This document shows positions 1,357-27,811 of a stretch of 64,000 bases of DNA, piece by piece (position 1 is the stretch's first letter; each line of letters begins with the position of its first letter). The DNA comes from Candidatus Iainarchaeum sp. (lineage in GTDB: Archaea > Iainarchaeota > Iainarchaeia > Iainarchaeales > JAZDFD01), in contig JAZDFD010000023.1 of assembly GCA_043808155.1 (NCBI GenBank), positions 1 through 64,000 of the forward strand. Reading direction: 5' to 3'. Below the pieces are notes generated by a model. That model worked only from the letters and a program-made list of their open reading frames with translations, ran no database searches and was not told the origin of the DNA. Position numbers and translations under genes: made by a program.

Positions 1357-4300
1357 TTAGTTTGCAATATTGTAGAACTTGTCTGAGTTCCAGTAAATCT
1401 TGAAAACATCTGAACTTGCTTCACTTACACAGATTTTTTCAGTTTTAATAAGTTCAAGATATTTCTCAATTGAATAATAGTTAACCATTTGTGTATTATT
1501 CAGTTCAAGAACTGCATTGTCACCTGTGATATTTCTGCTTACATTTGCTGTGTCTGTTTTTCCAGTTACACTGCTTCCTTCAGGTGTGAATTCTCTTGAA
1601 CTTAAACTGTGTTCTGAACCTGAACAGAGCATTCTGAGTTTTGTTGGAACATTAATTGGTACGTATGCAATTGCTCTTTTGTTTGCCGAAATATTTCCTG
1701 ACAAACCATATTCATCTGTTGAAATATTATTACATACTCTTACAATATTTGTTCCGCTTTCTTTACGGTCTTTCAGAAGTGTACCATTTTTCCATTGCAG
1801 TAAGAAAATATCCCCCGCTTCCGGATCCATTTCATAGAACATACCTGAAGTTTCATTTGAAATTCTTGCAAGTACATTTACTGGTGAGGATGGTTCATAA
1901 TTGAATGTACTTCCATTTACTGTTAGAACCCATCCATCTCTAACATCATTGAAGCTTTCGCTGAAATTACTCATGCTTTCTGCAAGTTTTGCAACTCCAC
2001 CCTGAATTCCGCCAGTTTGTGAAATTATCATCGACTCTTTCCCGTCCGCAATTCCTGCATTAAGTGCTTTGAAGAAGAAAATATTGTTAGTGTATTCTTT
2101 TCCTTCTCCCTGAATATTTCCAAGCTCATTGCGGTCTTTAACATTCATTAGTTTGAAAGAAGCATCTCCTTCCCATTCATAATTCAAAAACAAGTAATGT
2201 TTTCCTGCTTTATCATTAATTGAACTGTCACCTGTCAGATTCCAGTTTTCAAATCCAATGGCATCTAGTTCACCATTGTCATAACTTAAATATCTGGTTC
2301 TGAATTTGCTTTTGCTGTATTGTCCCGCGTCTCCGTAATTATCTTTGATTAAGTATGAATCAAATCTCAAATTCTCTTTCCAGAATTTAAATGAATCAGT
2401 AATTCCCTCTTTGTCCTGTGCGTTTTGCATTATACTGACTATTTCTTCTTCGTGTTCTCTAATGTGCAGAGTGCTCTTAGCACGCATTCCCACATGGAAT
2501 GTTATGTTGTTGTAAATTTTCTGTAGCAATGAAGCAGTTACTGTAACTTCACTATCAAAAATAGTAACTGTACAACTGTCTGCACCTAAACAGCTTGGTC
2601 CTGCTGCTACAAGTGCATTGTGCAGTGACTGATACTCATTGAATGTAATAACATGTTTATTGAAATTAGTTGGTTTTCCTGCTTGCAGTGTCTCAAGTTC
2701 AGTTTTTTCTTCAGTTGTGAATTTAGTCCCAGTAGTATCAATAATCCCAATAATATCTTTCTCATCTGCGTTTGCTGAACCTTCAACAGCAGTCATCAGT
2801 GTTTCCATTGCAGTTACAACACTAGGCATATCAGTATATGTGTCTTTGATTCTTTGTGCTTCTATAAATTCACTGTCATTAATATTAAGTTTTTCATTTT
2901 CTAAAATTTCATCACTATTTTTCAGGAAGAACAGATAACTTTCGCCTGTTGCATCATCAGTTACTTTCATAAGTTTCTTAACCCATAAATACAAATGTTC
3001 TGTATCTTTGAAGTTTGCAATTGTTTCAAATCCTGTGGCAGACGAAATTGTTTCGCTTGAATTTAATGAACTTCCATTTCCAATGAAGTCTTTAATTGCT
3101 TTTCCTTTTTGTGAAAGTGAAATACTGAACTGGGTTGCGTCACAGAACTTTTTAGTTGTTTGATTTGTGATTTCCATTTCATCACAAATGTTCTTTGTTA
3201 CATCGCTCCATTTCCAACTGAACAATAATCTGTCAAATCCATATTTATTGTAAACATTCTCACCTGTTTGTGTAGCGTCACAACTGCTCATTATGCCTAT
3301 TCCGCCGTCACCTGCTGGAAGTGGTTCTTCTGTTCCGTCTGGACCCTGTTGGTTTGAATCAACTGTAAGTCCAAATTCCTCCAGTCTCCACAAATCTTCA
3401 ATTATGATTGGGAAATCACTCTGACTGTTTCCAAACTGCTGTCTGAAATTAACATGCACATTTCCCCGTACATTAACATAGTAAACCATTGCCTGTACAG
3501 TCGCTCGTAAAAATCCCAAAGACGCCTTTGGATTTTCATTAAGTGTTTTTGCAACTTCCTGTCTGAATGCTAAGTTAGGTTTAACTTCAAATGAAACAAC
3601 TTGTTCATGTCCGTTAGAACCTGAACTCATTCTTTCACCCATAAACCATGAAGGCTGTTCAAGTATTGGACAGCTGCTCATACCGCCGCTTGGAATCCCC
3701 CCTATTGCACCACTGTATGCTGGATTTGAAAGATCTCCGCCCAAGTTTGGAACATTACATGAAATTTCAATTCCGTCAGAGCCTGTTGCAATTCTGATAC
3801 CCATGTCATAACAATAATTGTAAACTTCTAATTTCGCAGCTCTTCCAAATGGGTCTGTTAATGCAATTTTGCTTGGAGGAATTATTTTTATACAGTCTCC
3901 ACTCTGCAAAAGATCTTCAAAGTAAGTAACAATGATTTTTAATTCATCAACTAATTTAAATTTGTCTTTTGAACCATCAAGTCGTGCCTTAACTTTCAAT
4001 GGGTAAATTCCCATCTTCTGACTTGCGTTAAGTACCACATCTTTTTCTTCATTTGATTCTAATGTAAATGAACTTTCATCAGTTGTTATTGCTGGAACAA
4101 GTTCCAAATTAATTTCAACTGGTGCAGTGCATTCATTTACAATTCTGAAACCATCTGTGCTGTATGAACTCTGTGACATTTGCTGATTGTATGATGTTGT
4201 GTCTGCTGCGCCACTTGGCAAATAACTATTGCCGCCAGTAAACATTCCTGCCCAACCCATACTTGGGTTTTGGCCATAAGTGTAAACACTTGAGTCATAC

Positions 4301-7300
4301 TGACTTTGAGGATAAGGTGTATTGTAACCCTGTGAAGGGGTCATTGAGCTTCCATAACCAGGTAATGAATACTGCATACCGGGATCATATCCACCGCCAT
4401 ATCCATAAGCATCTGGAATTCCACCTGCAGCTGGATTATAACCATAATTTTGATATTGGTTCCAGCCCAAATTAGTTGGTGCAATTGTGAGTGTAATTTC
4501 TTTATTACCCACAATTTTAACACATTCTGCAAGATTGTTTATTGAAAGTTCAATTGGTGCACTGACTTCTATTTTTTCATTTCCATCAGGTGTACTGTTT
4601 GTTGCTCTTACTACAAGTTTGACATCACTTGCAGATGATTCAACATCTTCATCAGGTGTGAATGTAAATTCAATCTCTCCGCTGAAGTTCTTATTCATAA
4701 GTGGAGCAAACACTTCAAAGTTTTCACGTATTTCCATCCCTTCTGCTCCAAAGTCAATACTTTCTGCTTTGAAAACACCTGAAATATTTTCATTTTCAGA
4801 TTCAATTGCTAATTCAAGATTTCTCAGAACAATTGGTATTTCATTAACTGTACAATTATTTTTGATTTTAAATGTCATTGATTTAGCTTCTGTTTCTGTT
4901 ATAATTACCCAATCAACTGGTTCAATTTCAATACATCTGCTGTCATCAACTTCATTTCCTAAGCCAATTCTAACTTCAACAGGAATATTTGTGAACCATG
5001 ATTTTTCTGAATCTTTATTTGTTACATAAATTGTAAAGGTTCCTTCTAATTTTGTTGGTTCTTCAATTAGTTTTCCTTTATCTGTTAATTCAATTGTGAA
5101 ATCAAGCTGCATCTGCCCATCCCTTAATGTTGAATCTTCATCTTCTTCAGTTGATTCAATTGTGTTTTCTTTTTTTGGTGCAATATCCACATCTAAATAA
5201 TCATCATCAAGACTGAATCTTACCCTTCCTTCAAAGTCATTACTGAATTCAAGATCCTGAATTGTCATAGGTATTGGTGTGTAATTCTCAACTAACACTG
5301 ATACATGCAATTCATCATCAACTGATGCATCAAACCTTTCCCGGATTTCACTTGGAGTTACAAACAAAACATCTTCATTAAGTTTTATTTCTGTTTCAAT
5401 TTTTTTGTAACCACGTTTCTCTGCAATTACTTTTATAGTGCCGGGTGAAGGTGCCTGCAGCATATAAGGATAAATTCCTTCTGAATCTGTTTCGCCAATT
5501 GTAATAAGTTCATCTTCATAGTAAATGCTTACCTGAACTGCACTTAATTTTCTTTCCTCTTCACCAGTGCCTGTTGAAACTTCAACAAGCATCATATTGT
5601 CAATAAACGGAACCAATGCTTTTGGAAGAATTTCCATATGCATTTCTTTTGATGCTTCAACATCAATCACAATGTTTCTGTTAAACACTTCTTCTTTTCC
5701 TGATTTGATTATTATGTTCAGAGTGTTTGCACCTTCTTTCTCTGTTTTGAAAGAAACAGTTCCTACAACAACGGAACCCTGTCCAATATCTCCTGCAGAT
5801 TCAGTTATTTCATAAGCTGATTCGTCTGAATTGTGTGAAATTCCGTCTGCACCTCTTATGTTGTAATTATCAAATCTTAAACTGTCACCTGAACTTCTTA
5901 TTTCAATGCTTGAATTTGCAAGAAGTTTTTCCGAGATACTTGAAATGCTGAATTCTAAATTATACAATGAACTGTTTTTTGCAGGATATGATTCAAGAAC
6001 AACGCTTTTTGTTTCTCTTTCAACATCCTCAATTGAAAAGCTTTTGCAGAAATTATTTCCGCATAAATTTGAAGGCCCGATACTGTACTGCATTAGGTTT
6101 GCATTTGCATAAAGTGCCTGTCTCATTCCTGTGCTTTCGCTGTCGCCTAATGTTTCGTCATAGGGATCTCTTACATAGCTCCCAGATTTAGCCCATCCCC
6201 TGTACCATAATTTAAGAGTTTCTCCGACACTTGCAGAGTCTTTTACAACTACTTCTGCAATCATGTCATAGACGCCGGCATCAATATCTTTCCACACAAC
6301 ATTTACCCATTTTGCATCCCCTGTTGTTAATTTACCTGAATCAAGTGAATATCCATTTGAAGGTGTGTATGATGTCCCTTTTAATTTCCATTTTGAAGAT
6401 GAAAAGATTTCTCTTATTAAAATACTGTCTTCTTCCAATGTGCTTGTTCTATCTTCTGAGTCATTTCCAACTCTAAAATGAACCCCCCCTTCTCTGTATG
6501 CTGCACCTTTAGGAATCTTAAGTCTGAACATTGCATTATATTTCTGCCCCTGTGAAAGCGTATTGTTAGAAACAATTTCACCATTTAAATAAAGCCCGAC
6601 AAATTCAAGTTCTACTGAACTTACATCAGTATCTAATGTAAAACTAACTGGCACAATTGTGTTGTCTACTCCGTACATTGGTATTGAATGATATTTCAAA
6701 TAACCAGGTGCATCAACTTCAAAATAAACTGTCCTGTCCAGTCGCAAATCAAATATTTTCTTTCCCTGTGCATCTGAAATTCCGGAATCAAATTCATCGT
6801 CTGTTGCTAAATCAATCATTGTTATTTCTGCGCTCTGAATTGGCTGTTTTTCAGAATCCAAAACATTTATTTCTACGCTTCCAAAACCAATTGGTAAAAT
6901 TAATTCAACATTTGAAATTTGTTTTGGCAAAACCTGAATTGCTTCGCTTTTAACACTGTCAAATCCTGTTTTCATTGCTTCAACATGATAAAATCCTGCA
7001 GGCAGATTTCTGAAATTAACTAAACCGTCAAATCCTGTTGTAAGCATATTTCCGACAAGTGTGCCGTCTGATTTCATTAAACTTACTTTTGCATCTTCTA
7101 TTGGTTTGTTATGTGAATCTAAAACAGAAACATTTATTGCCTGTGAATTTTCAGATGTTGCTTTCTTAAGATAAACTGTCATGGTTGTTTGATTTTGGAG
7201 AACCTCTGATGTTGCAATTAAATAATCCGGATGATTAATTTCTAAATTGTGTCTTACATTAACATCTAATTCAAAAGTAACTTTTCCGTCGCTGTTAGTG

Positions 7301-8388
7301 TATCCTGCAGCTACTTCTTCATTATTGAGAATAAGTCTTACTGGTGCATCTTTTATTTTTTTGCTAGTGGTTTCATCAAGAACAGTCACTTCTAAAGTTC
7401 CCGCAATCGTTCTTATCATATTTGCAGTGAATGTGTTTTCAGAAGTTGCAGACACAGCTTTTGTTGGTGAAGTAAATAATGCATAATCTCCGTGAATGTC
7501 TGATGCAACAATATAATATGAGTTTTCTTCAACTTCCTGAAAGCGTATTGTTCCGCCAAATCCTGTTTCGCCTTTATTTTTTTCAATACCAGTTGAAGTT
7601 TTTAATGAAACAGTAATTCCTTCAAGTGCGTTGCCTTCGTTATCCATTATCTGCACTAAAACATTTGCTTTTGGTTTTTGTGCTCCCTGAAGTTGAACAA
7701 TTGGAGTTGAATAATTTTGCCAATCAATTAAGCCCCCAGAACCCTGAAAGTTTGAATTTAAAACATCTGCATAAAATGAATTACACCCTGCAGGAATTTC
7801 GATATCAATTTCTCCGTTATAAACAGTTTTAGTTTCATCATATTCTGTGTTTCCACAATAAAATCTAACTTGTAAAGATTCACTTACCATATATCCTGTT
7901 GTACTATCTTTGAACTGAATTGTCGTCATATGCGAAGTAATTTCACTAAGGGTTGCGTAAGTAGTTGTTTCTCCAGTTTCAAAAACGGTTATCCCCCCAC
8001 TATATTCGGAATAACCTTCTTTTGTGGCAGTTATGTTTGCATATCCCCCGCCATCAATAAAGAATTTTGCTTTACCTTCTGAATCAGATGTTTCTGTAAA
8101 TGTTTTACCTTCAACAACAGCTGTGACAGTTGCACCTGATATGGGATTGTCACTCAAAGTGCTTACTTCAACAATTAAATTATACTGGTCTGTGGAGGGT
8201 TGTATCATACCCATTATCAGCCATCCGCTTCCAATGACTAATAGTAAAACAATAAGCACTGCTAATGGGAAGCTTGGAATACCCGCTTTTTCAATTCCAT
8301 CAACAACTCCGTATAGATGAACACCTTTATCATCAAGCCAATCAAGAAAGCCATACCACTTATCTTCCATGCTTTGATAAATACCCAT
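1357..8388 (-). CDS. Giant membrane-anchored surface protein (2343 aa) with tandem carboxypeptidase-regulatory-like/Ig-like beta-sandwich repeats
   Basis: N-terminal TM (PSFPLAVLIVLLLVIGSGWLIMG); repeated 'V.V.D....PI..A.V.L......TD..G...F' units; paralogous to 10258..18972. Confidence 0.85.
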   Translation of the reverse strand: MGIYQSMEDKWYGFLDWLDDKGVHLYGVVDGIEKAGIPSFPLAVLIVLLLVIGSGWLIMGMIQPSTDQYNLIVEVSTLSDNPISGATVTAVVEGKTFTETSDSEGKAKFFIDGGGYANITATKEGYSEYSGGITVFETGETTTYATLSEITSHMTTIQFKDSTTGYMVSESLQVRFYCGNTEYDETKTVYNGEIDIEIPAGCNSFYADVLNSNFQGSGGLIDWQNYSTPIVQLQGAQKPKANVLVQIMDNEGNALEGITVSLKTSTGIEKNKGETGFGGTIRFQEVEENSYYIVASDIHGDYALFTSPTKAVSATSENTFTANMIRTIAGTLEVTVLDETTSKKIKDAPVRLILNNEEVAAGYTNSDGKVTFELDVNVRHNLEINHPDYLIATSEVLQNQTTMTVYLKKATSENSQAINVSVLDSHNKPIEDAKVSLMKSDGTLVGNMLTTGFDGLVNFRNLPAGFYHVEAMKTGFDSVKSEAIQVLPKQISNVELILPIGFGSVEINVLDSEKQPIQSAEITMIDLATDDEFDSGISDAQGKKIFDLRLDRTVYFEVDAPGYLKYHSIPMYGVDNTIVPVSFTLDTDVSSVELEFVGLYLNGEIVSNNTLSQGQKYNAMFRLKIPKGAAYREGGVHFRVGNDSEDRTSTLEEDSILIREIFSSSKWKLKGTSYTPSNGYSLDSGKLTTGDAKWVNVVWKDIDAGVYDMIAEVVVKDSASVGETLKLWYRGWAKSGSYVRDPYDETLGDSESTGMRQALYANANLMQYSIGPSNLCGNNFCKSFSIEDVERETKSVVLESYPAKNSSLYNLEFSISSISEKLLANSSIEIRSSGDSLRFDNYNIRGADGISHNSDESAYEITESAGDIGQGSVVVGTVSFKTEKEGANTLNIIIKSGKEEVFNRNIVIDVEASKEMHMEILPKALVPFIDNMMLVEVSTGTGEEERKLSAVQVSIYYEDELITIGETDSEGIYPYMLQAPSPGTIKVIAEKRGYKKIETEIKLNEDVLFVTPSEIRERFDASVDDELHVSVLVENYTPIPMTIQDLEFSNDFEGRVRFSLDDDYLDVDIAPKKENTIESTEEDEDSTLRDGQMQLDFTIELTDKGKLIEEPTKLEGTFTIYVTNKDSEKSWFTNIPVEVRIGLGNEVDDSRCIEIEPVDWVIITETEAKSMTFKIKNNCTVNEIPIVLRNLELAIESENENISGVFKAESIDFGAEGMEIRENFEVFAPLMNKNFSGEIEFTFTPDEDVESSASDVKLVVRATNSTPDGNEKIEVSAPIELSINNLAECVKIVGNKEITLTIAPTNLGWNQYQNYGYNPAAGGIPDAYGYGGGYDPGMQYSLPGYGSSMTPSQGYNTPYPQSQYDSSVYTYGQNPSMGWAGMFTGGNSYLPSGAADTTSYNQQMSQSSYSTDGFRIVNECTAPVEINLELVPAITTDESSFTLESNEEKDVVLNASQKMGIYPLKVKARLDGSKDKFKLVDELKIIVTYFEDLLQSGDCIKIIPPSKIALTDPFGRAAKLEVYNYCYDMGIRIATGSDGIEISCNVPNLGGDLSNPAYSGAIGGIPSGGMSSCPILEQPSWFMGERMSSGSNGHEQVVSFEVKPNLAFRQEVAKTLNENPKASLGFLRATVQAMVYYVNVRGNVHVNFRQQFGNSQSDFPIIIEDLWRLEEFGLTVDSNQQGPDGTEEPLPAGDGGIGIMSSCDATQTGENVYNKYGFDRLLFSWKWSDVTKNICDEMEITNQTTKKFCDATQFSISLSQKGKAIKDFIGNGSSLNSSETISSATGFETIANFKDTEHLYLWVKKLMKVTDDATGESYLFFLKNSDEILENEKLNINDSEFIEAQRIKDTYTDMPSVVTAMETLMTAVEGSANADEKDIIGIIDTTGTKFTTEEKTELETLQAGKPTNFNKHVITFNEYQSLHNALVAAGPSCLGADSCTVTIFDSEVTVTASLLQKIYNNITFHVGMRAKSTLHIREHEEEIVSIMQNAQDKEGITDSFKFWKENLRFDSYLIKDNYGDAGQYSKSKFRTRYLSYDNGELDAIGFENWNLTGDSSINDKAGKHYLFLNYEWEGDASFKLMNVKDRNELGNIQGEGKEYTNNIFFFKALNAGIADGKESMIISQTGGIQGGVAKLAESMSNFSESFNDVRDGWVLTVNGSTFNYEPSSPVNVLARISNETSGMFYEMDPEAGDIFLLQWKNGTLLKDRKESGTNIVRVCNNISTDEYGLSGNISANKRAIAYVPINVPTKLRMLCSGSEHSLSSREFTPEGSSVTGKTDTANVSRNITGDNAVLELNNTQMVNYYSIEKYLELIKTEKICVSEASSDVFKIYWNSDKFYNIAN

Positions 8389-8520: not shown

Positions 8521-10212
8521 TCATTCTGTTTTTGGGGAGCATTGTATTGCTGCTGCTGCTCCGCCTGCTGCTCCTGGTGCAGGACTTGGCTCAAATCCCT
8601 GCTGATAACATTTCCAATCGTCATTATCATAACTGCATCCGTGAGACTTTACACTCCCAAATAAACAAGTCGAACTATTCAGCCCCACTGGTTTCAATGT
8701 AGGATCAAATGTTCTATACCTGTTATCCTGAATCTCAACTGTGAATTTAACAACATTGCTTGGGTCATTAACAACTTTATATTTTGGATTTTCCTCAACA
8801 AAAACAAGCTCTGCAACAACTCCCGTAACTTCTGCACATTCTGCATATTCAACACCAGTTGTTACAGAAGATGAACAACTTGCACTTGCAGCTGTATAAT
8901 ATTCTGTGTTTTCAGCTGTTCCGAACAAAGCTGCATTTGGATTGTCAAAACCATTATTCTGGCTTATAGGGCAAATGCCTGAGTTGTAACTTCCAATAGC
9001 GGGATTAGGAACATCTTTCAATAAATTGCCTGTATTATGAATCTGCTTTGACGCTTTTGGATTCACCTGAACTGTCAGGTCACTTAATTTTGAAGGCATT
9101 CCGCAAATAGCGGGACTATCACTTTCTAAAATTATAAAATCCCCATAATCTGCATTTAATGCATCATTAAGAGCTGTAATTTCGCAGACTCTTGCCTTTA
9201 CTAATTCTGCAAGTTGTATATTCTTTGTTGCTGAGGTATAAGTTCCACCATTATCCATTGTAACTTCTGAAGTTCCGTTGCATTTGTTTTCCCATTCTTT
9301 TGCATCAGGCGGCATGTAAGGATTTGTTCTTGGTGCGCAGTAACCTTTATCACAAAAACCAAGTTTCATTTCTTCAATTTCATTATGAACACGAGGAGAA
9401 AGCAGACCATTATTTTGTGACAAATTATTAAGTTCATTATAATTCAGTGCAGCATCTCTTGCAATTGCAAGTGCTTTAAAAAGTCTTAACGGAACATAAA
9501 TTCTTAAATCATGCCTCGGGATAATTCCAATTTTTACAAATTCATTTGTTGAATTATCAACAATTTTTAAAACAGGAGCTTGCTCATAATCTTCATCAGT
9601 AATTTTGCTTCCTGCAAATGTAATGTAAAAAGTGCCCAGATCACAATTGTCCGGATCTCCATTTTCACAACCAATAACTTCAAAAAATTCACCTGCAAGC
9701 GCACTTTCATCCATCGTTGTTCCAATAACTTCTTTAAGTGGATCTGCATTATTTGGATTTTGAAAATAACTCATATCCACATCTCTATCTTCAAGTTTCA
9801 TAGTGTAATTTCCAAAACTCGTTGTTGCTCTGAAATAAGATCTTAAATTACGTGCCAATTTCCAAGCGAACGAATCACCTTTGTTTATACCACCCCCAAA
9901 ATATGTTATTGCATACTCTTTTTGTAAATCATCCCAGTTTCTTAAAACAGTTGGGTCATCCATGAGATATGTTCCTCCGCTTTCTGTAATCCAATCTTCA
10001 ATATAATATCTTACAAAATAATTGAAAATCTGCAGTGCATCTGCTCTTGTAATATGTGCTACTGCATATAATTTAGATTGTGATTCCAATCTTGCAATTG
10101 TTGAAATAACAGTGTCTTCAGAACTAAGCATACTTTGCACTAAAAGAATTGTAAGCATAATTAGCACAAATGCAACTAATGCAGTAAAAAGATTGAAAGC
10201 ACGCTGATTCAT
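8521..10212 (-). CDS. Large pilin-like/adhesin protein with class III-type signal peptide (563 aa)
   Basis: MNQRA|FNLFTALVAFVLIMLTILLV: basic leader, R-A cleavage site and hydrophobic helix; Cys-rich extracellular body. Confidence 0.7.
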   Translation of the reverse strand: MNQRAFNLFTALVAFVLIMLTILLVQSMLSSEDTVISTIARLESQSKLYAVAHITRADALQIFNYFVRYYIEDWITESGGTYLMDDPTVLRNWDDLQKEYAITYFGGGINKGDSFAWKLARNLRSYFRATTSFGNYTMKLEDRDVDMSYFQNPNNADPLKEVIGTTMDESALAGEFFEVIGCENGDPDNCDLGTFYITFAGSKITDEDYEQAPVLKIVDNSTNEFVKIGIIPRHDLRIYVPLRLFKALAIARDAALNYNELNNLSQNNGLLSPRVHNEIEEMKLGFCDKGYCAPRTNPYMPPDAKEWENKCNGTSEVTMDNGGTYTSATKNIQLAELVKARVCEITALNDALNADYGDFIILESDSPAICGMPSKLSDLTVQVNPKASKQIHNTGNLLKDVPNPAIGSYNSGICPISQNNGFDNPNAALFGTAENTEYYTAASASCSSSVTTGVEYAECAEVTGVVAELVFVEENPKYKVVNDPSNVVKFTVEIQDNRYRTFDPTLKPVGLNSSTCLFGSVKSHGCSYDNDDWKCYQQGFEPSPAPGAAGGAAAAIQCSPKTE

Positions 10213-10257: not shown

Positions 10258-13200
10258 TTATGCTACTAGCCCAAGTTCTTGTTTGTATGCTGCGGCTTTG
10301 CCCATTACATCTGGAACATAATGTGATGCGGATTCACTACAACCCCATCCATTATATGCACGTAATGCTGCTTCCCATTCTGTGTAATTCGCATAACCAT
10401 ATTGGCAGTTTTCACATTGCGAAGCAGATAAAGAGGAACCACTACACCCATTTTTCCATTGATCATATTTTGCTTTTAAAAACTGAGCTCCGCATTCAAT
10501 ATTATTTCCCATGTCCATTAATTGTTCTCGCGTCATGCCACATTTTGTTTCATTCTCTTCCACTAATATTTGAAACATTCCTATGGATCTATAAAAAACA
10601 ACTCCATTTCTAGTTACCTTGTCGCCTAATTTCACAGTTGTTCCACTACTAAAATGATTCATTGAACTTTCTTTATCTGCAACTGCTAATAAAATTTCAG
10701 GTGGCACATTGTATTTATTTGCAGCTGCAATTATCAGATTTTTTACTTCTGTAGTTCCAAGTGTGCTATATGTTTGGTTATTGCCGGATGTGTTACTGGA
10801 TGAATTTCCATATTGATTTTCCCAGTCTATTCTATAACCTGTCCATCTGTTGAATGTAGTTACTAAATTTCCTGCATTTATTCCATGGTTTTGTGCATAT
10901 GTTCTCAGTAATGCTTCATCGTCACTTGGATGACTAACTCTTAATTGTTCAAGTTCTGACGCAACAACACCAATTTGTGTTTCAAATTGTGATGCACTTA
11001 AATTATGCAATGGCGGAACACTTTCAAACACAATCGCCATTAACATGGCTTCAGTGATTCCTTTGTCTTTGTATCTTATTGCCATATTAACAACTGGTTC
11101 CTGAATTGCAGGACTATAATAAACGGTTTTTCTTGCACCTTCACTATCAGGTGGTGATAATGAACCAAACACTATCTGGATACTTTTTTCCATAAATTGT
11201 CCTGAGCAGTATATGTCATCTAATCTTGTTGCGCTTCCATTTGCAAGGTCTTCTTTCATTGTTGCAATATCTGCTTCAGAAGTAATCTCTCTCATGTTAA
11301 TTGTACGAGTTCCGCCGCCTACTGATTGTTCAATATCAATTCTGTAAGTTGAGTATTTCCTTATTGTCTGCTGTAAAATATTTCCGCAGTCTTCATCTAT
11401 TCTGGTGTCTCCATCATTGTCAATCCCATCGCAGGTTTCCTCATCTGTTTTACCATCATCATCGTCATCCTGTCCGTTACCTGGTCCTTGTAAGTTAAAG
11501 TTATTTGCTTGGTCAGCTGGATCTGCGTAATTTTTACCCCAATACCAGTTCCATGCTCCCATTCCCGCTATGTTTGAAACTGCACCGCAAAGCACACCCC
11601 ATCCTATGCCTTTTGCAGTCTGCCAGCTCCAGAGATTTGCCACTGCTTTTTTAACACCTTGACCCCAGTTAAGTTTCTTTGATTTTTCTGCTAGTTCTGC
11701 TAGGGCCTTGTCTGTCAATTCTTTACCTATTTTGTTTTTGAACTTAGCATTTCCGCTAAAGTTAGTAATTCCTCTCCTGACTAATGATTTTACATTTCCT
11801 TCATTTACTGTTGCAGTAACTTTCCAACCCGTTGTTGTTGTTGAAGTTACCCCTGTAAGAGGATGTGTAGTTGTTGTTGTAATTGGGTCAAAAACATAAT
11901 CAATGTAAGGTGCGAATGCACTTTTGCCCAATGTAGTTGGAGGTAGGTCTGAAGCAGAGATTGAAATTCCTTTGCTTGTCAGGGAGTCAACCACGTGACC
12001 CTTAACATTAGTGTTTATTCCGCTTGATAGTTCAGTTCTCCAACTTTTTACAGTGCTTTCCATTAAAGTTTCCATGTCTACTCTTGTAGGTGCAGTAGCA
12101 CCTGGCCATGAATTTGTGGCACTAAATGAACTTCTACTTAATTTACTGTAAATATCATCTGTTGCGGTTGAAGAGAAAAGTCCCCTAATTGCGTCATTTT
12201 GTGCGCTTCCAAATCGAGCTGGTATCGTACCACTTGTCCAATTTGATGCATCGCTTAACAAATTAAAGTGCTTTGTTGTAGTTTGCCCCATTGCAGTTGT
12301 GTATGCTTTTTGGACTGTGTCGGCAATTTTATCTGCACCAGTCATTGCCCTTCTTTCAGCAGTAGTGGTTGCATCTTTCATGATTTTATCAAGTGCTTTT
12401 TTCATTTCTTCTTTCATTGTTTTTGAAATTGTATCTGCAGCTGTTGATTCTACGCCTTCTTTCACAAGTTGTGTCTTTAAATTAGCTGCTACGGAGTCTG
12501 AAATTGCTGTTGCACTACTTGGAGTTAGTTCTGTTAAACCAACATGTCCTGCCCTTGCAAGTAAATCTAAACCCAAACCAATTTCTCTTTCAACTAATAA
12601 ATTTGAATATTCTGCAGATGTTTGATTAGCTGTCTGCGGATTCTGCAAACCACCTGGTGTTTGAGTTACGGGGTTTGCGCTTGGATCATTACTGCCCCAT
12701 AGCAAATCACCTATGCCTCCAAAGAAATTCTTTATTGCCTGAGCAACTGCGGAATCCTGACCCGCATATATCAATGCAGGAATACCGCAGTCGAAGAAAG
12801 CATCCCATAATCCACCTGCCGGACTTAATGTAGTGGCCCATCCACATAATCCTGCAGTTAATACACAGGCTCCTAAATAGACACTTAATGCAGGCCATTT
12901 TTTACTTGCAATAAAACTTTGCCAAGCTGGTGAATTTGTAAGATCCAAACCAGTATTTGCACCTTCCTGTATTGTTGCTCTGTCTAACTGATTATCTCTG
13001 TAAAGTGCTCTCCAAATATCTACAGCGTCGATTTCGTTTGGTTCGCCTTTCCAGCCAACAGTTGCATAATATCTGCCAGGTTCTGCGTTTGACATGTCTC
13101 TGAATAAATCATAAGGATGGATTACACAAACTTTAATTTTGATAATTTCTTCAACTGGCTGGAATCGTGTTCCGCGCCCAGTAACTTCAACACTTTTTGC

Positions 13201-16200
13201 AGTAAGTTTGATTTCTTTCATATTTTCTACTGCTAAATTAAACTGATTACTTCCCTTTGCACAGACTTGGAATTTATGTTCATATAATTCTCTGCCTTCT
13301 TCTTTCACTAAGTCAATTTCCTGATCTTTTGAAATTTCAGTTCCGTCCAAATTCTTCAATTTAACATACATCACACCTGCTTCTGAACTTCCAAGATCTG
13401 TAACTCTTTTTTCAAAGTCAGTTTCAAGTGTAACTTTTTCCGGGAATTCACTGCTAACATTCGCATCAATACAAACTTCATCAGTTGTTAAACGTAACTC
13501 ATCTTCTGCTTTAAGACTTAATTCACCAAATTCTTCATAACTCTGAATTATGAATGAAGATTCATCTTCACTTATGCAGCCATCAACACTGTGTTCTGTT
13601 AATGATGCAACTGCGAGCGCAGCTTCTTTTGCAATCTGTTCTTTAAGTTCTGTATTTCCGGTTTCATAAGCTCTGTTAATGTAAGCATAAACTGTTTTTG
13701 GTGAATCCTGCGAACCTTCCTGTTTAATTTCAAGTTTTAATATTCCGCCCTGAGTATCTCCAAAATCTAAAACAAGTTTATTGTTTGATGGATTCAGTGT
13801 AACTCTGTCTTCAACATCAAATAATTCTTTTGAGAAACTTTTTGTTAATGATTCCAAACCAGTTTTTTGTTTTATAATTCCCGGCCATGCATTGTAATTT
13901 TCAGTAACACTATATTCTTCATCCACTGGCAAGAAATTCATGAAGTTTTGTATTTTGTTTGCACATTCTGCAGTGTTTTGTCTTTCTGGTTCGCTCTTTA
14001 ATAAAAGAATATAATTATCTTCCAGAATTCTGTTGTTGGAAACCTGCATTACTCCGTTAATTGTGAATGTGTACATTCCGCATCCTTTAATATCATCTGA
14101 AACATAAAGCTGACTTGACCAGCCTCCTGTGGCTAGTGAACTGATTTCAACATCTGAAATTGAAACACTTAAATTTTTTACTTCAGTTAAACCAGAATTA
14201 CTTAACTCATGCTGCAAGACCTGTGTAGTCATATAATCGTTCTGCATGAAAACAGTAAACGCAGTAGGGACAATTCCTAATGACGTAAAACTACAGTATT
14301 CATTATTTGCACAGCCATGGAAATTAGCTGATTCATAACTTCCGCGGTATGCTTTTGATTTTGCTTCAACTACTAATTCCTTTAATTTATCTTTCAGATA
14401 TAATGCAAGTGATTTTGCATCACAGTAATTTCTTGAACAGTCAGTCCCAATTAATGGATAATAAATTGTTTTAATAGTTTCACTGTCACAAACTGCAATT
14501 TCTTGCGGAGACGTGGCTGCACTTGTTTCTTGTATATCATTTCCTAATTTTATTGTAAATGGCTGGGATATTGTTGCGTCCACAAACTTCTGTGTTCTTA
14601 CAAGAAGACCTTTAACAACAACTTTGATATTTTCCTGATTATAATCCTGTCTTTTTTGAAGTATTATTTCAAAGTCTGCCTGCTGATTTGGTCTTAAAGT
14701 AGTTGCTGAAAGAGGGTGAAGTATTATTGAATTCTGCCCAAATTTGTCTGGTGAAATTGACGTAATATTCACTTCTTCTGCACATTGATTTCTTACTGTG
14801 ATTATTTTGCTTATTGAACCTGCAGAACTTTCTGCACTCTGGAAAAGCAAATCGTCATCAGACCATGCTTTTAAACACTCAAATCCGGAAACATGAATCC
14901 ATGCATTAACTCTTCTTAATTCATATCTTCTGCCGTCAATATTTCCAGAAATTACAACTATTCCTGGTACTGGTTCTGCTAAACTGTCTTCAATATCTGC
15001 TTCTGCGAACAGTGATCGTGTTGGTGATGCTGGCTGCCCTGGCATTAAACCAGGTATGTTTTCAGCTGGAACAATTGAAACACTGATACTGTTCAATCTC
15101 CAGTCATCACTCATTAGTGAAAAGCCAATATCTTCTACTGGCACAACACCTGTATTTCTTACAAAGATTGGCGCCATTGCTTTTGCTTTTTCTTCAACAT
15201 TTGATTTACTTAACCATAACACAAGATTGTCTGATGCTGAAATTGAAAATGCAGGGTTCCATATTAACACATTCAGTGAAATTCCCTTTGCAATTCTCGC
15301 AGATTCAAATACTATTGAATATGAAAAATTAAGTGGTGGTGCATTCATTCTTTCAACTTTATTCAGCACATCAATTGTAACATTCTGAGTTTCACCTGCG
15401 TTTATTGAAACTGAATTTGCAGTGATTTCAATATATGGGTCTCCTCTTCTAGGCAGTGCCCTTGTTGATAATTCTAATGCAGTGTCGCATGTGTTTTCTA
15501 TTGACAATTCAAGCTGTTTGCTTGTGCCTGCAGTTCCTGTCATGTAAAGCTGCAATGCACCTTTATCAAATTTCAGACAATCACTGTCAATTTTCTTGTT
15601 GTAACTTACTTTTACGATTGTTGTTCCTAAAACTTCATAAGTGCCGGAAATAAATCCTCTGATTATTACCTCTGTTTCACTGTACAGATTTGCTTTTGGA
15701 TTTTCTCCAATATATTTTGCAGTGAATGATACACCAATCTTTTGTTCAGCTTCAAGCGCATCTGGTAAATCAACTTCTAATGTAAAGTTTCTTGAAAATT
15801 CCCTGTCATTTACAAGTTCAAATGAAACCTGCTCAACTTTATAATTTGCTTTATTCTCTAAATCCACAATTACAGTTCCAACATCGCCTAATGCATCTAA
15901 ATTGAAAACAATTTCATCGTCAAGTTCAATTCCACCTTCTGCTTTTATTTCAATTTCTAGGTCTGAGCTTGCATAACCATCAGCTGAAGCAACAAATTTG
16001 TATTCACCAGGTGCGAAAATATTTTCAAAGAAATATAATCCGTTTTCTCCCTGTTTAGGAGTATTATTTCCGATTATTGTTACTGCAATGTTTTGTTCTG
16101 AATCATGTAAATGCACAGTTGCATTAGTTATTTTTTTACCCTGACTTTTAATTTCAAGTATGAAGTTTTCTGCAACATTTATTTCTTCAGGTGTTACTGT

Positions 16201-18972
16201 GAGTTCAAGTTCTTTTTCTCCTTCAACTTCTAAATTTATTTCTTTGTTTATTATTGTGCTCCCTGAAATTAACTGAAGAGTAAGATGAGTTATTCCTTCT
16301 GCAGTAGTAATGAAATTAACTGTTACTATTTTTTCTTCTCCTTGTGCAAGCCTCACATCTGAAACATCTAACGAAGTGACCTCCAGATTATCTCTTACTG
16401 AATCATCTAAAACATATCCTGTGACAAACAATTTTGGTTCTGATTTATCTGTGCTTATTTTTAATTTTGCGTTTCTGTCTTCTTCTGAAAGAATGCTCAC
16501 AAGTAATTCATAGTTTTTATTTAATGCAGGTCTGAATTCACTGCTTTCATATTCTAATCCTGTTTCATCTCTGAAGAAATAAGATACACAAACTCCGTCT
16601 TCGCATTTTGCATCCGGACTTTCTAAAATCTTCACAAAGTCAGATTTTGTGTTTGCATAAAGTCCTGTTCTTTCAAAATTATATTCGTCTTTTCCTAAAA
16701 CATCATCAACCGGATTTCTGAAATATTCATAGCCTATTAAACCCCACACACGGGATTTAACTTCAAAATCATCCAATGAAGTAGTTTCACGTGCCTGAAC
16801 CTTAACTTTTACAATAGTTGTGTCTGCAGGGTTATCAAAGTAAAGATCCAGCCATTTGTTATACTCACCCGGCACGCCCTGATTTTGCCTGTCAATGCCC
16901 TCATTTCCAGGTGCGGGTTCAGGAGTATAACTAGTGCCGTAGAATGATTCACCCACTACTGCATCAAATCCCAGAATACCTACGTCCTGTGAATCTGCAA
17001 ACTGAATATTATCATTTCCAATTCTTATATGCACTCCGCCTTTATAATCTCCTTCGGGCCAGTATGTTTCAAACTTTAACCAGTAATATCTGCCAGGGCT
17101 TATTCCTTCAACTTCTGCCCCAAATTCATCTAAAACTCCGATAAATTCAATTCTTGGTTCTAAACCCAATACAGTTTTGCCTGAAAATACTAGTTCATAA
17201 TAATCCAGTCCCTGCATATTAACTTCTTCTGAAAACTCTTCCCCAGTGTCAGTAACAACATAAACATCAAAAACATCATTCCCCCGAGAATCAAACAAAA
17301 TATAGCCTGTGTCTCCGATTGTTCCATTATAAAGTTCGGTTCCGTCTTTTGCAGTCACTACCACCGTTCCAAGAATACGTTCGTTGTTAGGGCCTACAAA
17401 GTATAATTCTTTCAAGGCAGTTGTATCTTCTAAAAAGATTCTTATTTCATTGAGCTCATTCAATCTCACTAAAACGCTTTCACTCCCTTCCATTGAATTT
17501 TTCACTGCTTTTGCAACAAGTTCAATATTTACCGGGGAGCGTACCTGCACATAACCTGAAAGATTTGTCTGAACATCAGGGATCCCAATTGGCAGTTCCA
17601 CGCCGTTTTTTAATTCCAAAAATGTAACTGTTGCATTTTCAACAACATCATACAAATCAGTTGCAACATAAATGCTTACATTTGAAGCATTGTCTGTGCT
17701 TGCATAATCCATAACAAGATCTACTTCTGGATTTTCTGAAATTTTTGCTTCAGCTCTTGCAGGCAATACTCCGTCTGCGTATGCAACAGCATAATATGTA
17801 TCTTCAGGATTTAAATTTCCGAATTCAACTGCACCTGAAAATGCAGAGTCCTCTTCACCAATTAATTCATTTTGTGAATTGTAAAGTCTTACTTTTACAT
17901 TTGTAAGACTCTGTCCCTGCGTGTCAGTTGTATAAACAGTAAGTTTTTGCCCGCCATGTTCAAGCATAACATCCAGAACTTCCTCATCGCCAATAACAAC
18001 AATACTGTCGTTTGTTACAAGACTGTCGTATCTTAAATAATCAGTATCTTCTTTTTGAACAATTACTCTTAATGGTTGTGTTTTGGGAATATCATTTGCT
18101 AAGAATTCTCCGTTGTCAGTAAAAGAATCAAAAAGTACAGCGCCACTATCCCGGTTTTCAATTGTAATTTTTGCTCTGTCAACTGGCTGATTTGTTTCAG
18201 CATCTGTTACTGTTACAAGAAGTCTGCCTGTACCCTGAAGATTAATGTTTTTTGGTGACATGTAAATTGCTTCAACACCAGTGCCTGAAAAAGTTCTTGT
18301 TTGATTTGAAATATCTTCATAATTGTCTGCTCTGACACTAACACTTAACTCAATGCCGGTTGGTACGCCCATTAAATGATAATAATTATCGCCTAAGAAT
18401 TCTGCTTCTAATTCTGTTGCCATGTCTGGAACTTTTACAATTACAACTGCATTTGGTATTGGTGTTTTTGAAAGTTCATCAATAACTGAAAGAAGTACTT
18501 CTTCATTTTGAATTATTTTTTTCATTGTAATTGGCACATAAATAATTTCTTTATCGATTTTAATTGTTGTACCTGCACTTTCATAACCACTTTTTGAAAC
18601 ATCAATTCTAATTTCTGCACCAGGCCAGATTCCTTTCAAATCAATTTTAGTTCCGTAAGACGGACTGCTAATTTGTTTTCCTCCTGAATCATAAATAGTT
18701 ACTGTCGGACCTGCAACTGTTGTCTGGAATTGATCTGTAACTGTAAGATTAATTGTGGGGTTAATTGTAAGCCCAATAAAAAACAAAGCAAAAAGTCCTG
18801 CAATAATAATTACAACAAGTGCAACAGTAAATGGGAATGAAGGTATTCCGTTGTTGTCAAGTGCATCTGCATACACTCCGATTGGGATTCCTTTTTCTTC
18901 CAGAGAATCAACTAGTGCATACCACTTATCTTCAAAGCCTGCATAAAAAGATCCTAGTTTTTCTGAAATCAT
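10258..18972 (-). CDS. Giant membrane-anchored surface protein (2904 aa) with C-terminal lytic transglycosylase (SLT/lysozyme-like) domain
   Basis: N-terminal TM and beta-sandwich repeats. The C-terminus carries SLT motifs in order: IIAAANKYNVPPEILLAVADKESS, SIGMFQI, NNIECGAQFLKAKYD, WEAALRAYNG. Confidence 0.85.
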   Translation of the reverse strand: MISEKLGSFYAGFEDKWYALVDSLEEKGIPIGVYADALDNNGIPSFPFTVALVVIIIAGLFALFFIGLTINPTINLTVTDQFQTTVAGPTVTIYDSGGKQISSPSYGTKIDLKGIWPGAEIRIDVSKSGYESAGTTIKIDKEIIYVPITMKKIIQNEEVLLSVIDELSKTPIPNAVVIVKVPDMATELEAEFLGDNYYHLMGVPTGIELSVSVRADNYEDISNQTRTFSGTGVEAIYMSPKNINLQGTGRLLVTVTDAETNQPVDRAKITIENRDSGAVLFDSFTDNGEFLANDIPKTQPLRVIVQKEDTDYLRYDSLVTNDSIVVIGDEEVLDVMLEHGGQKLTVYTTDTQGQSLTNVKVRLYNSQNELIGEEDSAFSGAVEFGNLNPEDTYYAVAYADGVLPARAEAKISENPEVDLVMDYASTDNASNVSIYVATDLYDVVENATVTFLELKNGVELPIGIPDVQTNLSGYVQVRSPVNIELVAKAVKNSMEGSESVLVRLNELNEIRIFLEDTTALKELYFVGPNNERILGTVVVTAKDGTELYNGTIGDTGYILFDSRGNDVFDVYVVTDTGEEFSEEVNMQGLDYYELVFSGKTVLGLEPRIEFIGVLDEFGAEVEGISPGRYYWLKFETYWPEGDYKGGVHIRIGNDNIQFADSQDVGILGFDAVVGESFYGTSYTPEPAPGNEGIDRQNQGVPGEYNKWLDLYFDNPADTTIVKVKVQARETTSLDDFEVKSRVWGLIGYEYFRNPVDDVLGKDEYNFERTGLYANTKSDFVKILESPDAKCEDGVCVSYFFRDETGLEYESSEFRPALNKNYELLVSILSEEDRNAKLKISTDKSEPKLFVTGYVLDDSVRDNLEVTSLDVSDVRLAQGEEKIVTVNFITTAEGITHLTLQLISGSTIINKEINLEVEGEKELELTVTPEEINVAENFILEIKSQGKKITNATVHLHDSEQNIAVTIIGNNTPKQGENGLYFFENIFAPGEYKFVASADGYASSDLEIEIKAEGGIELDDEIVFNLDALGDVGTVIVDLENKANYKVEQVSFELVNDREFSRNFTLEVDLPDALEAEQKIGVSFTAKYIGENPKANLYSETEVIIRGFISGTYEVLGTTIVKVSYNKKIDSDCLKFDKGALQLYMTGTAGTSKQLELSIENTCDTALELSTRALPRRGDPYIEITANSVSINAGETQNVTIDVLNKVERMNAPPLNFSYSIVFESARIAKGISLNVLIWNPAFSISASDNLVLWLSKSNVEEKAKAMAPIFVRNTGVVPVEDIGFSLMSDDWRLNSISVSIVPAENIPGLMPGQPASPTRSLFAEADIEDSLAEPVPGIVVISGNIDGRRYELRRVNAWIHVSGFECLKAWSDDDLLFQSAESSAGSISKIITVRNQCAEEVNITSISPDKFGQNSIILHPLSATTLRPNQQADFEIILQKRQDYNQENIKVVVKGLLVRTQKFVDATISQPFTIKLGNDIQETSAATSPQEIAVCDSETIKTIYYPLIGTDCSRNYCDAKSLALYLKDKLKELVVEAKSKAYRGSYESANFHGCANNEYCSFTSLGIVPTAFTVFMQNDYMTTQVLQHELSNSGLTEVKNLSVSISDVEISSLATGGWSSQLYVSDDIKGCGMYTFTINGVMQVSNNRILEDNYILLLKSEPERQNTAECANKIQNFMNFLPVDEEYSVTENYNAWPGIIKQKTGLESLTKSFSKELFDVEDRVTLNPSNNKLVLDFGDTQGGILKLEIKQEGSQDSPKTVYAYINRAYETGNTELKEQIAKEAALAVASLTEHSVDGCISEDESSFIIQSYEEFGELSLKAEDELRLTTDEVCIDANVSSEFPEKVTLETDFEKRVTDLGSSEAGVMYVKLKNLDGTEISKDQEIDLVKEEGRELYEHKFQVCAKGSNQFNLAVENMKEIKLTAKSVEVTGRGTRFQPVEEIIKIKVCVIHPYDLFRDMSNAEPGRYYATVGWKGEPNEIDAVDIWRALYRDNQLDRATIQEGANTGLDLTNSPAWQSFIASKKWPALSVYLGACVLTAGLCGWATTLSPAGGLWDAFFDCGIPALIYAGQDSAVAQAIKNFFGGIGDLLWGSNDPSANPVTQTPGGLQNPQTANQTSAEYSNLLVEREIGLGLDLLARAGHVGLTELTPSSATAISDSVAANLKTQLVKEGVESTAADTISKTMKEEMKKALDKIMKDATTTAERRAMTGADKIADTVQKAYTTAMGQTTTKHFNLLSDASNWTSGTIPARFGSAQNDAIRGLFSSTATDDIYSKLSRSSFSATNSWPGATAPTRVDMETLMESTVKSWRTELSSGINTNVKGHVVDSLTSKGISISASDLPPTTLGKSAFAPYIDYVFDPITTTTTHPLTGVTSTTTTGWKVTATVNEGNVKSLVRRGITNFSGNAKFKNKIGKELTDKALAELAEKSKKLNWGQGVKKAVANLWSWQTAKGIGWGVLCGAVSNIAGMGAWNWYWGKNYADPADQANNFNLQGPGNGQDDDDDGKTDEETCDGIDNDGDTRIDEDCGNILQQTIRKYSTYRIDIEQSVGGGTRTINMREITSEADIATMKEDLANGSATRLDDIYCSGQFMEKSIQIVFGSLSPPDSEGARKTVYYSPAIQEPVVNMAIRYKDKGITEAMLMAIVFESVPPLHNLSASQFETQIGVVASELEQLRVSHPSDDEALLRTYAQNHGINAGNLVTTFNRWTGYRIDWENQYGNSSSNTSGNNQTYSTLGTTEVKNLIIAAANKYNVPPEILLAVADKESSMNHFSSGTTVKLGDKVTRNGVVFYRSIGMFQILVEENETKCGMTREQLMDMGNNIECGAQFLKAKYDQWKNGCSGSSLSASQCENCQYGYANYTEWEAALRAYNGWGCSESASHYVPDVMGKAAAYKQELGLVA

Positions 18973-25885: not shown

Positions 25886-26326
25886 TTGAAACTGAGAATT
25901 AATAAAACAGGCCAGATGTTTGAAGGTTACAGATTAATAATCGGAGCAATAATGGCAATAATGATTTTAGTAATTATTCTTGGAATGATTACTTATCTCC
26001 AAAATATTCAAATGCAAATAAGCCAAGAAAGAATGTATGATGGTTTAAAAGCTGCAAAAAAAACCCCTGATGGAAGTGTTGTTGTAAGGGAAAACTTGAT
26101 CTTTACGGATGGGCAAAGTTATTCTCAGAATTCATTTGCAAATCAGATAAATCTGGCTAGTGAATGTGTAACTATTCAATCAAAAGACAGCAGTGCCTAT
26201 GAACTACTTGCTACTGGCACTTTAAACATAAATACCTATCAAACAACTAATGTATACTTCAAATGTTTCATGGGCGGAGATTGTGACATTACTTGTGTTG
26301 TTTCTTTCGGAAAACCGTTTGAGTAA
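25886..26326 (+). CDS. Pilin-like protein (class III signal peptide)
   Basis: INKTG|QMFEGYRLIIGAIMAIMILVIILGMI. Confidence 0.8.
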   Translation: MKLRINKTGQMFEGYRLIIGAIMAIMILVIILGMITYLQNIQMQISQERMYDGLKAAKKTPDGSVVVRENLIFTDGQSYSQNSFANQINLASECVTIQSKDSSAYELLATGTLNINTYQTTNVYFKCFMGGDCDITCVVSFGKPFE

Positions 26327-26337
26327 CCCAGAGAAAT

Positions 26338-26389
26338 GTTTAAATATCTGAAAGCTTTCTTCTTATCATACTTTAATATAGGTGATTAA
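26338..26389 (+). promoter_or_regulatory. Promoter (TATA box TTTAAATA) and GGTGA RBS of first duplicated pilin
   Basis: Nearly identical to 26977-27027. Confidence 0.65.
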
Positions 26390-26935: not shown

Positions 26936-26936
26936 C

Positions 26937-26969
26937 TAGTCTAATTCTCTTTTTCTTTTTTCTTTTCTT
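26937..26969 (+). terminator. Oligo-T archaeal terminator (copy 1)
   Basis: tagtctaattctctttttcttttttcttttctt, identical to 27562-27594. Confidence 0.65.
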
Positions 26970-26976
26970 ACCAAAA

Positions 26977-27027
26977 GTTTAAATATCTGAAAGCTTTATT
27001 CTTGTCATAATTAATATAGGTGATTAA
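26977..27027 (+). promoter_or_regulatory. Promoter and RBS of second duplicated pilin
   Basis: gtttaaatatctgaaagcttt...taatataggtgattaaATG, a copy of 26338-26389. Confidence 0.65.
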
Positions 27028-27806: not shown

Positions 27807-27811
27807 CCTCC

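Follow-up and report, generated by a model that had tools for sequence, protein, structure and literature searches.

What use could an archaeon that appears to make no peptidoglycan have for an enzyme that cuts it? The question is raised by a 64,000-nucleotide stretch of DNA from Candidatus Iainarchaeum sp. (assembly GCA_043808155.1, contig JAZDFD010000023.1, positions 1 to 64,000 of the forward strand), referred to below as the window. An uninterrupted open reading frame (ORF) on its reverse strand encodes P0001, a putative surface protein of 2904 amino acids (aa) that ends in an SLT domain of the lytic transglycosylase type. An earlier reading made from the sequence alone (the sequence-only reading) had placed an intact SLT domain at the end of this protein, in the segment 10258–10760, which corresponds to aa ~2738–2904 plus the stop codon, and had proposed that it acts on a foreign wall. 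Judging from the sequence and from structural models, we consider it probable that the SLT domain cuts bacterial peptidoglycan where the archaeon and a bacterium touch. The core idea, that DPANN archaea direct large SLT proteins against bacteria, is already published (PMC8204110, PMC9723730); what is added here is an order-wide family of stalk proteins with differing C-terminal ends, together with a conserved gene cluster.

The domain is readily recognized by profile comparison. Pfam family PF01464 (SLT) matches aa 2746–2875 with 40.5 bits (E 2.3e-10) when the whole protein is searched and with 46 bits (E 4.4e-12) when the last 200 aa are searched alone, against a gathering cut-off of 21.3; the match is far beyond chance. 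The motifs that the sequence-only reading had listed are all present and in order (VADKESSMN with the predicted catalytic Glu2768, GMFQI, NIECGAQFL and ALRAYNGWGC), and the extra Cys residues that it had pointed out number six within aa 2811–2878. G-L-M-Q and A-Y-N-x-G are further consensus motifs of the SLT/GH23 family, and in P0001 they take the form GMFQI and RAYNGWG, with F replacing the usual M. Searched exhaustively with HMMER, 1.84 billion representatives yielded 193 proteins at E ≤ 0.001 (14 of them at E ≤ 1e-10), the closest match other than P0001 itself being 49% identical. We listed 149 SLT relatives, 81 of which span the whole domain. In a 32-row subfamily alignment the invariant columns are the Glu at aa 2768, a Gly, a Gln, one Cys (aa 2811) and one Val, while Ser2769, which completes the ES motif, and the Cys residues at aa 2853 and 2878 are each at least 90% conserved. 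That the relatives form a distinct subfamily is seen when the 81 that span the domain are aligned: they have in common (Q/K)ES, G-x-MQI and NI-CG, then AALRGYNGWGC and YVE-V, and several Cys. When a profile of the subfamily is compared with the sequences of the PDB it matches MltC (E 1.3e-15) and EtgA (E 1.3e-12), and its invariant ES falls on theirs; the Glu of this motif is the catalytic residue in both enzymes.

The predicted structure points the same way. Hidden Markov model and structure searches of the last ~170 aa, which the sequence-only reading had proposed as its check, returned a lysozyme-like SLT fold. An AlphaFold2 model of the last 176 aa, built on the subfamily alignment, has a predicted local distance difference test score (pLDDT) of 88.6 and a predicted template modelling score of 0.86. 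Foldseek comparison of the model with the PDB gave four matches at E ≤ 0.001, all of them lytic transglycosylases with a probability of 1.00 (best E 4.4e-4), and the top matches comprise LtgA, MltC, Slt, MltF and MltE, plus g-type lysozymes. VIA-align, which is independent of Foldseek and was run against 48,161 chains with a second, larger model as the query, also places lytic transglycosylases first: MltF with Z 14.4 and a root-mean-square deviation (rmsd) of 3.0 over 130 aa, LtgA with Z 14.3 and rmsd 1.9 over 124 aa, MltC with Z 13.5 and Slt70 with Z 11.0. Identity to the bacterial enzymes in the structural alignments is 13–23%. The model and both comparisons agree on the lysozyme-like, mainly helical fold of GH23. 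By every sequence and fold criterion applied, aa 2736–2904 is a predicted family-1 lytic transglycosylase, and the domain is most likely catalytically competent.

The next question is where such an enzyme would find its substrate. The producer is a DPANN archaeon with a small genome. The assembly comprises 1.08 Mb in 35 contigs, of which the window is contig 23, and is 88% complete with 0.4% contamination; archaeal genes on the contig include those for a cytidine triphosphate (CTP)-dependent riboflavin kinase, PAC2, and KaiC-like and FlaI-like ATPases. Searches of this genome for the PBP transpeptidase (PF00905), SEDS (PF01098) and GT51 (PF00912) families gave no match at 88% completeness, with controls positive in 10 of 14 genomes. 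At that level of completeness the archaeon shows no sign of having peptidoglycan itself, as judged by its gene content. Because no PBP, SEDS or GT51 gene was found, a bacterial wall is the most likely target, which agrees with the foreign wall of the sequence-only reading. The company that the domain keeps elsewhere also fits this target. A Pfam scan covered 93 of the 149 SLT relatives (21 + 72), and in 10 of these the SLT domain is accompanied by another domain specific to peptidoglycan: Peptidase_M23 in three, NlpC/P60 in two, GH25 in two, and Peptidase_M15_4, LysM and YkuD in one each. Two further relatives in the scan have a GDSL esterase and a DUF2272 domain, respectively.

The enzyme might instead act on its own producer, remodelling a peptidoglycan-like wall there or opening it for the neighbouring pilus-like machine. 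The gene does lie within a type-IV-filament cluster (see below), bacterial SLT enzymes encoded in filament clusters act on the producer's own wall, and the genome contains one Mur_ligase_M match. However, M. jannaschii and H. volcanii, which served as wall-less controls, also give Mur-ligase matches, no PBP, SEDS or GT51 match accompanies the one in this genome, and a spacer of 2700 residues would be unnecessary for reaching the cell's own wall. We find an own-wall function scarcely credible. The muropeptide salvage genes AnmK and Amidase_2 were likewise not found in the 88%-complete genome, which leaves a feeding role without support.

These results lead us to propose the following scheme for action on a bacterial wall. 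A single N-terminal helix (aa 48–70), preceded by a conserved segment of 47 residues, would hold P0001 in the archaeal membrane. Outside the cell would follow a beta-sandwich stalk of ~2000 residues, then a lineage-specific region, and finally the family-1 lytic transglycosylase with Glu2768. Upon contact the SLT domain would cleave the bond between N-acetylmuramic acid and N-acetylglucosamine (GlcNAc) in the wall of the touched bacterium, and the local opening of the sacculus could lead to attachment, access or killing.

Several points weigh against this scheme, and some of them bear on rival explanations. A single-sequence phmmer search with the last 200 aa against the PDB sequences found no lytic transglycosylase and one spurious match (E 0.57), so that the link to these enzymes requires profile or fold comparison. 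Most SLT-subfamily relatives carry no organism label, the archaeal labels being those of P0011 ('Nanoarchaeota archaeon') and, in the stalk family, of P0154 ('archaeon'), and the subfamily may not be archaeal throughout. At 88% completeness, wall-synthesis genes could be among what was left unassembled. In addition, G-x-M-Q stands in at least 90% of the subfamily rows, whereas P0001 reads GMFQ. This change from M to F would suit an SLT domain that binds the wall as an adhesin module and catalyses little or nothing, as would the adhesin-like domain make-up of the stalk, and the passage of PMC8204110 on such proteins proposes 'attachment to bacterial cell walls'. We nevertheless regard a non-catalytic role as quite unlikely, given that the catalytic ES is present here and invariant in the subfamily, and that relatives pair SLT with other wall-cleaving enzymes.

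A further point on that side is that GH23 includes chitinases. The GH23 chitinase 3w6b reaches Z 10.4 in VIA-align, plant and bacterial chitinases stand with it among the fold matches (Z 7–10), and MltE has been crystallized with chitopentaose (4hjy). The substrate could accordingly be another beta-1,4-linked GlcNAc polymer, such as chitin, chito-oligosaccharides, or an archaeal or eukaryotic glycan. The chance of this appears slim: the top matches are all peptidoglycan lytic transglycosylases, and the partner domains seen in relatives either target the peptide portion of the wall or bind peptidoglycan.

The last adverse point concerns the position of the enzyme relative to the cell. The sequence-only reading had P0001 anchored at its N-terminus with the enzyme far out on a long stalk. 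Its anchor is borne out by one strong membrane helix at aa 48–70 (hydropathy 2.81). From the sequence, a location at the far end of the stalk is plausible, but hydrophobic helices at aa 2015–2091 and a further hydrophobic patch at aa 2462–2479 leave room for other topologies or for processing. The region 2015–2091 is modelled as three helices with pLDDT 65–78, within a 915-aa AlphaFold model whose mean pLDDT is 60.9, and these helices may be buried, may enter the membrane or may mark a processing site. Together with the patch they could shift the C-terminal part to another compartment or bring it near the membrane. The helices, with or without the patch, might re-enter the membrane and keep the enzyme near the cell, or the variable C-terminal part might be set free by cleavage, the exosortase-like neighbour being one candidate for the cut. 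The hydrophobic region is conserved in the family and coincides with the end of 20 of the 22 near-full-length alignments among the matches listed (aa 1958–2246), and an exosortase-family gene stands between the ATPase gene and the giant gene in the window as well as in 5 of 5 relatives. On the other hand, the mean hydropathy of the helices is just 0.66–0.95 with two charged residues apiece, compared to 2.81 in the N-terminal helix, the giant lacks the C-terminal motif-helix-basic tail that exosortases cut, and confidence in the model is low overall. We think this altered geometry rather unlikely. The parts of P0001 and the neighbouring genes are collected in Table 1.

Table 1. Parts of P0001 and neighbouring features, with their positions in the window.
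Feature	Position	Strand	Evidence or remark
Giant paralogue of 2343 aa, stalk and N-terminal motif kept	1357..8388	-	BLASTP 24% identity over 501 aa, E 3e-18
ORF of 563 aa between both giants, N-terminal hydrophobic helix MNQRAFNLFTALVAFVLIML	8521..10212	-	hydropathy
P0001, whole ORF, putative giant surface protein	10258..18972	-	2904 aa, ATG start, TAA stop, uninterrupted
P0001 aa 2736–2904, SLT/GH23 lytic-transglycosylase domain	10261..10767	-	Pfam, alignment, AlphaFold, Foldseek, VIA-align
GAA codon of Glu2768, predicted catalytic acid in the ES motif	10669..10671	-	invariant column, aligned to the ES of MltC/EtgA
P0001 aa 2092–2735, lineage-specific region in common with P0151	10768..12699	-	identity to P0151, composition, model
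P0001 aa 2015–2091, conserved hydrophobic helical region (AC..T..G, DCG-I/L-P)	12700..12930	-	alignment, hydropathy, model
P0001 aa 71–2014, conserved stalk, CarboxypepD_reg/macroglobulin-like beta-sandwich domains	12931..18762	-	Pfam PF13620, E 2.9e-18
P0001 aa 48–70, sole strong membrane helix, FTVALVVIIIAGLFALFFIGLTI	18763..18831	-	mean Kyte-Doolittle hydropathy 2.81, zero charged residues
P0001 aa 1–47, acidic conserved N-terminal segment	18832..18972	-	motif EDKWY..LD.L..KGIP...GIPSFP; 16-member family alignment
Exosortase/archaeosortase-family membrane protein of 193 aa, directly upstream of P0001	19150..19731	-	same strand as P0001; TIGR04178, 42.6 bits vs cut-off 23
Type II/IV secretion (FlaI/TadA-like) ATPase of 763 aa, divergent	19809..22100	+	PF00437, E 5.4e-20
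T2SSF-type platform membrane protein of 778 aa, many membrane helices	22190..24526	+	PF00482, E 2.7e-06, 27.8 bits vs 25.2
Seven small archaeal pilin-like ORFs	25886..30464	+	class III signal-like: mostly basic N-terminus, K/R-G-Q or KG, hydrophobic helix

The N-terminal segment of P0001 (aa 1–47), which is presumed to be cytoplasmic, is the best-conserved stretch of the giant family in the alignment of 16 members, and its motif recurs in the paralogue encoded nearer the start of the window. P0001 and its closest database relative, P0151, are 77% identical in this segment, 50% identical in the SLT domain, and between 32% and 67% identical elsewhere. The lineage-specific region ahead of the SLT domain, which P0001 shares with P0151 only, contains helical parts, including a domain at ~aa 2615–2711 that is modelled confidently, as well as Ser/Thr-rich parts and an acidic, Asp-rich stretch with Cys residues (aa 2480–2540). 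No Pfam family matches aa 2092–2735 at E ≤ 0.01, and the protein Atlas gave no usable match for aa 2540–2735.

Two kinds of processed protein were considered for P0001, and it shows the usual signal of neither. As a substrate of an exosortase or archaeosortase it should carry a C-terminal sorting signal of motif, helix and basic tail; the signal is absent, and the protein ends in ...AAAYKQELGLVA without a C-terminal helix. As for a type IV pilin, the archaeal class III signal is a short basic leader, with K/R at position −2 and G/A at −1, that stands ahead of a hydrophobic helix. The leader of P0001 is 47 aa long with 8 acidic and 3 basic residues, and N precedes the G of GIPSFP; nor does any Pfam pilin family match aa 1–75. 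Most relatives in the family do carry a class-III-like K/R-G-I-P-x-F before the helix, and P0001 may have a processing site related to the class III signal. The genome contains two Peptidase_A24 genes. A loose test for class-III-like N-termini was positive in 37 of the 149 SLT relatives, under a rule that ordinary signal anchors also satisfy.

Through its stalk, P0001 belongs to a family of giant proteins. A search with the stalk gave six full-length relatives, of which P0151 (53% identity over aa 1–2897) also ends in an SLT domain and the other five (26–30% identity) have no Pfam SLT. At E ≤ 1e-10, 176 of the 196 genomes of the order have a match to the stalk family (175 of 195 when the source genome is left out), as do 54 of the 55 high-quality genomes. 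Most of the matched giant ORFs are 2400–2800 aa long (range 1965–2804, a few being shortened). Among the matches listed, 22 alignments start at or before residue 27 and end at or beyond residue 1958; 20 of these end at aa 1958–2246, two near aa 2490–2498, and none farther on. The end points of the alignments indicate that the stalk is conserved, whereas the final 500–800 residues of most relatives do not align to P0001. From these comparisons, SLT is one of several C-terminal endings of the stalk family.

Other members of the order have the domain too. Of the 196 genomes of the order, the source included, 60 have a PF01464 match, mostly in proteins of 250–350 aa. By overlap of coordinates the domain lies inside stalk-family ORFs in three genomes (G016, G053 and G045), where ES-, GLMQ- and AYN-G-type motifs are kept. 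Under the P0001 SLT subfamily profile these three giants score 31–44 bits compared to 112 bits for a 529-aa protein of the same order, so the SLT ends of different giants are not close copies of one another, and their dissimilarity may reflect repeated capture or fast divergence. In the orthologous giant of G045, a genome of another family (L029, G045:C4:33500-36600), the SLT domain is followed by a GDSL/SGNH-type esterase motif (...VGDSLTVGYSP...); O-acetyl-peptidoglycan esterases of the GDSL/SGNH fold prepare the path for lytic transglycosylases. The C-terminal ~200 aa of the stalk relatives P0152 and P0153 have no Pfam SLT, but stretches such as ...VVAIWKSDFG... bear a loose resemblance to the beginning of an SLT domain, with the Glu missing; these ends may be degenerate lysozyme-like domains.

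The giants found among the 149 SLT relatives were also considered as members of the same stalk family, an assignment that was rejected when BLASTP of P0001 against all 149 gave no alignment outside the SLT domain. A word-indexed search with the SLT region among proteins of 1597–5082 aa returned the query alone. P0151 surfaced through the stalk search, and the query-only result accordingly reflects low sensitivity and not uniqueness. A related-locus search of genome contigs with P0001 found no relatives. Within the window, the giant paralogue (Table 1) is 45% identical to P0001 over the N-terminal 38 aa and shows no SLT domain in a Pfam scan. Outside the window, contig C6 of the genome encodes a third giant paralogue (G000:C6:5846-13051, 2401 aa), which shares the N-terminal motif and is preceded by an ORF of 1903 aa; the same contig has a weak second SLT match of 28.8 bits in a 344-aa protein (L002:1207-2241, minus strand).

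A recent phage, plasmid or virus origin of the SLT domain found no support, the matches being distant ones: among phage and plasmid records the closest reaches 32% identity over 63% of the domain, a PHROG transglycosylase family matches with E 6.5e-7, and one IMG/VR locus is 34% identical over 84 aa. In these sequence comparisons we found no evidence of recent transfer.

The genes next to P0001, which the sequence-only reading had passed over, resemble parts of a type-IV-filament system (Table 1). Upstream of the exosortase-like gene, on the opposite strand, lie the genes for a secretion ATPase and a platform protein and the run of pilin-like ORFs. A strict test for [KR]GQ followed by a hydrophobic helix is passed by 11 of 1767 ORFs of the genome, 4 of which are in this run. 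A Pfam scan at E ≤ 1 assigned no pilin family to the pilin-like ORFs, to the N-terminus of P0001 or to the ORF of 563 aa between the giants; this last ORF also has no Pfam or NCBIfam family. The arrangement is conserved. In 5 of 5 relatives tested, from five families, an ATPase orthologue with 66–67% identity lies within ~14 kb of a giant gene and an exosortase-like orthologue (36–45% identical) lies between the two, and the relative orientation of the three genes is kept across the five genomes. Full-text searches of the literature yielded no paper that ties large SLT proteins to a type-IV-filament/exosortase-like cluster, although the supplement of PMC8204110 may bear on this point.

The combination of a conserved cluster with giants that differ at their ends leads us to speculate further. 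The giants of this order could be carriers whose conserved N-terminal handle and stalk are exported or displayed by the adjacent machine of ATPase, platform, exosortase-like and pilin-like proteins, with different effector ends, SLT being one, joined after the hydrophobic junction at ~aa 2015–2091; they would then be an archaeal counterpart of bacterial polymorphic-toxin or contact-dependent systems, directed against bacterial hosts. We offer this extension tentatively, as a possibility that we would not yet bet on.

Several other observations were made on the cluster and its surroundings. The FlaI-like part of the cluster ATPase is preceded by ~300 extra N-terminal aa (the match begins at aa 297). 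Across the five families this ATPase is much better conserved than the giants, with 66–67% identity compared to 30–34%. Between the platform gene and the pilin-like genes, at 24585–25826 on the plus strand, lies a gene for a 413-aa TnpB-like protein with a Cas12f1-like TNB domain (E 1.3e-24), which looks like an IS200/605-type insertion into the cluster. At 33278–37930 (+) is encoded a 1550-aa protein without a Pfam family whose tail consists of ...PSLPEN, a hydrophobic helix and RKRYSNY; lying 14 kb from the giant, it is a candidate substrate of the exosortase-like protein. A second type-IV-filament set at 41596–45112 (−) comprises T2SSF proteins of 304 and 274 aa and a 597-aa T2SSE ATPase, the N-terminus of which bears 4Fe-4S ferredoxin domains (Fer4, E 1.3e-10), an unusual fusion. 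A riboflavin/flavin mononucleotide group at 37972–39671 (+) consists of a helix-turn-helix CTP-dependent riboflavin kinase followed by two genes of the DMRL-synthase fold (176 and 133 aa).

A tethered peptidoglycan cutter in a cell that appears to make no peptidoglycan would point to bacterial partners or prey, and so bears on the question of which organisms most DPANN archaea of the Woese-/Pacearchaeota type live on. The segment aa 2736–2904 with Glu2768 is a small, defined domain that can be tested in vitro. The near-universal giant family, with its differing ends and its conserved ATPase/platform/exosortase-like cluster, would also provide a handle on how a contact apparatus is built.

Comparable proteins have been described in related archaea. 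PMC8204110 reports fam00969, a group of SLT proteins from Woese-/Pacearchaeota that reach 3000 aa; it proposes attachment to bacterial walls or their degradation, and cites earlier sightings. In Woesearchaeota, genes for a 'large lytic murein transglycosylase' (GH23) are described by PMC9723730, which argues for predation. P0001 resembles these proteins as described there: it comes from a small-genome DPANN archaeon (1.08 Mb), has an SLT domain in 2904 aa compared to their ~3000 aa at most, has one relative labelled Nanoarchaeota, and shares the proposed role on bacterial walls. It differs in that the passages on such proteins in the two papers speak neither of a stalk family with differing ends nor of a type-IV-filament/exosortase-like cluster.

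With the bacterial family-1 enzymes Slt70, MltC, MltE, MltF and LtgA, the domain shares the fold and the ES, G-x-M-Q and AYN-G motifs. It is set apart from them by the extra conserved Cys, RGYNGWGC and YVE.V of its subfamily, by its fusion to an archaeal stalk of 2700 residues and by a producer without an apparent wall of its own. The encoding of an SLT domain inside a filament or secretion cluster recalls EtgA of type III secretion and the VirB1-type enzymes, and among distinct PDB sequences the subfamily profile ranks an EtgA fusion construct (8urn) third (E 1.3e-12). Those enzymes, however, are small and open the producer's own wall, whereas P0001 is made by an archaeon and would be aimed at another cell. 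The use of a lysozyme-like domain against a foreign wall is known from phage tail and tape-measure lysins, from Tse3, from Bdellovibrio DslA and from the hydrolases of PMC12352652, which shows killing of bacteria by other archaeal peptidoglycan hydrolases and mentions the Woesearchaeota case. Tape-measure gp41, Tse3 of the type VI secretion system and DslA are themselves fold or profile matches of the P0001 domain, though weaker ones (Z 8–10). What would distinguish P0001 from such injected or secreted weapons is that its SLT domain, as far as can be read from the sequence, stays covalently tethered to the cell that makes it.

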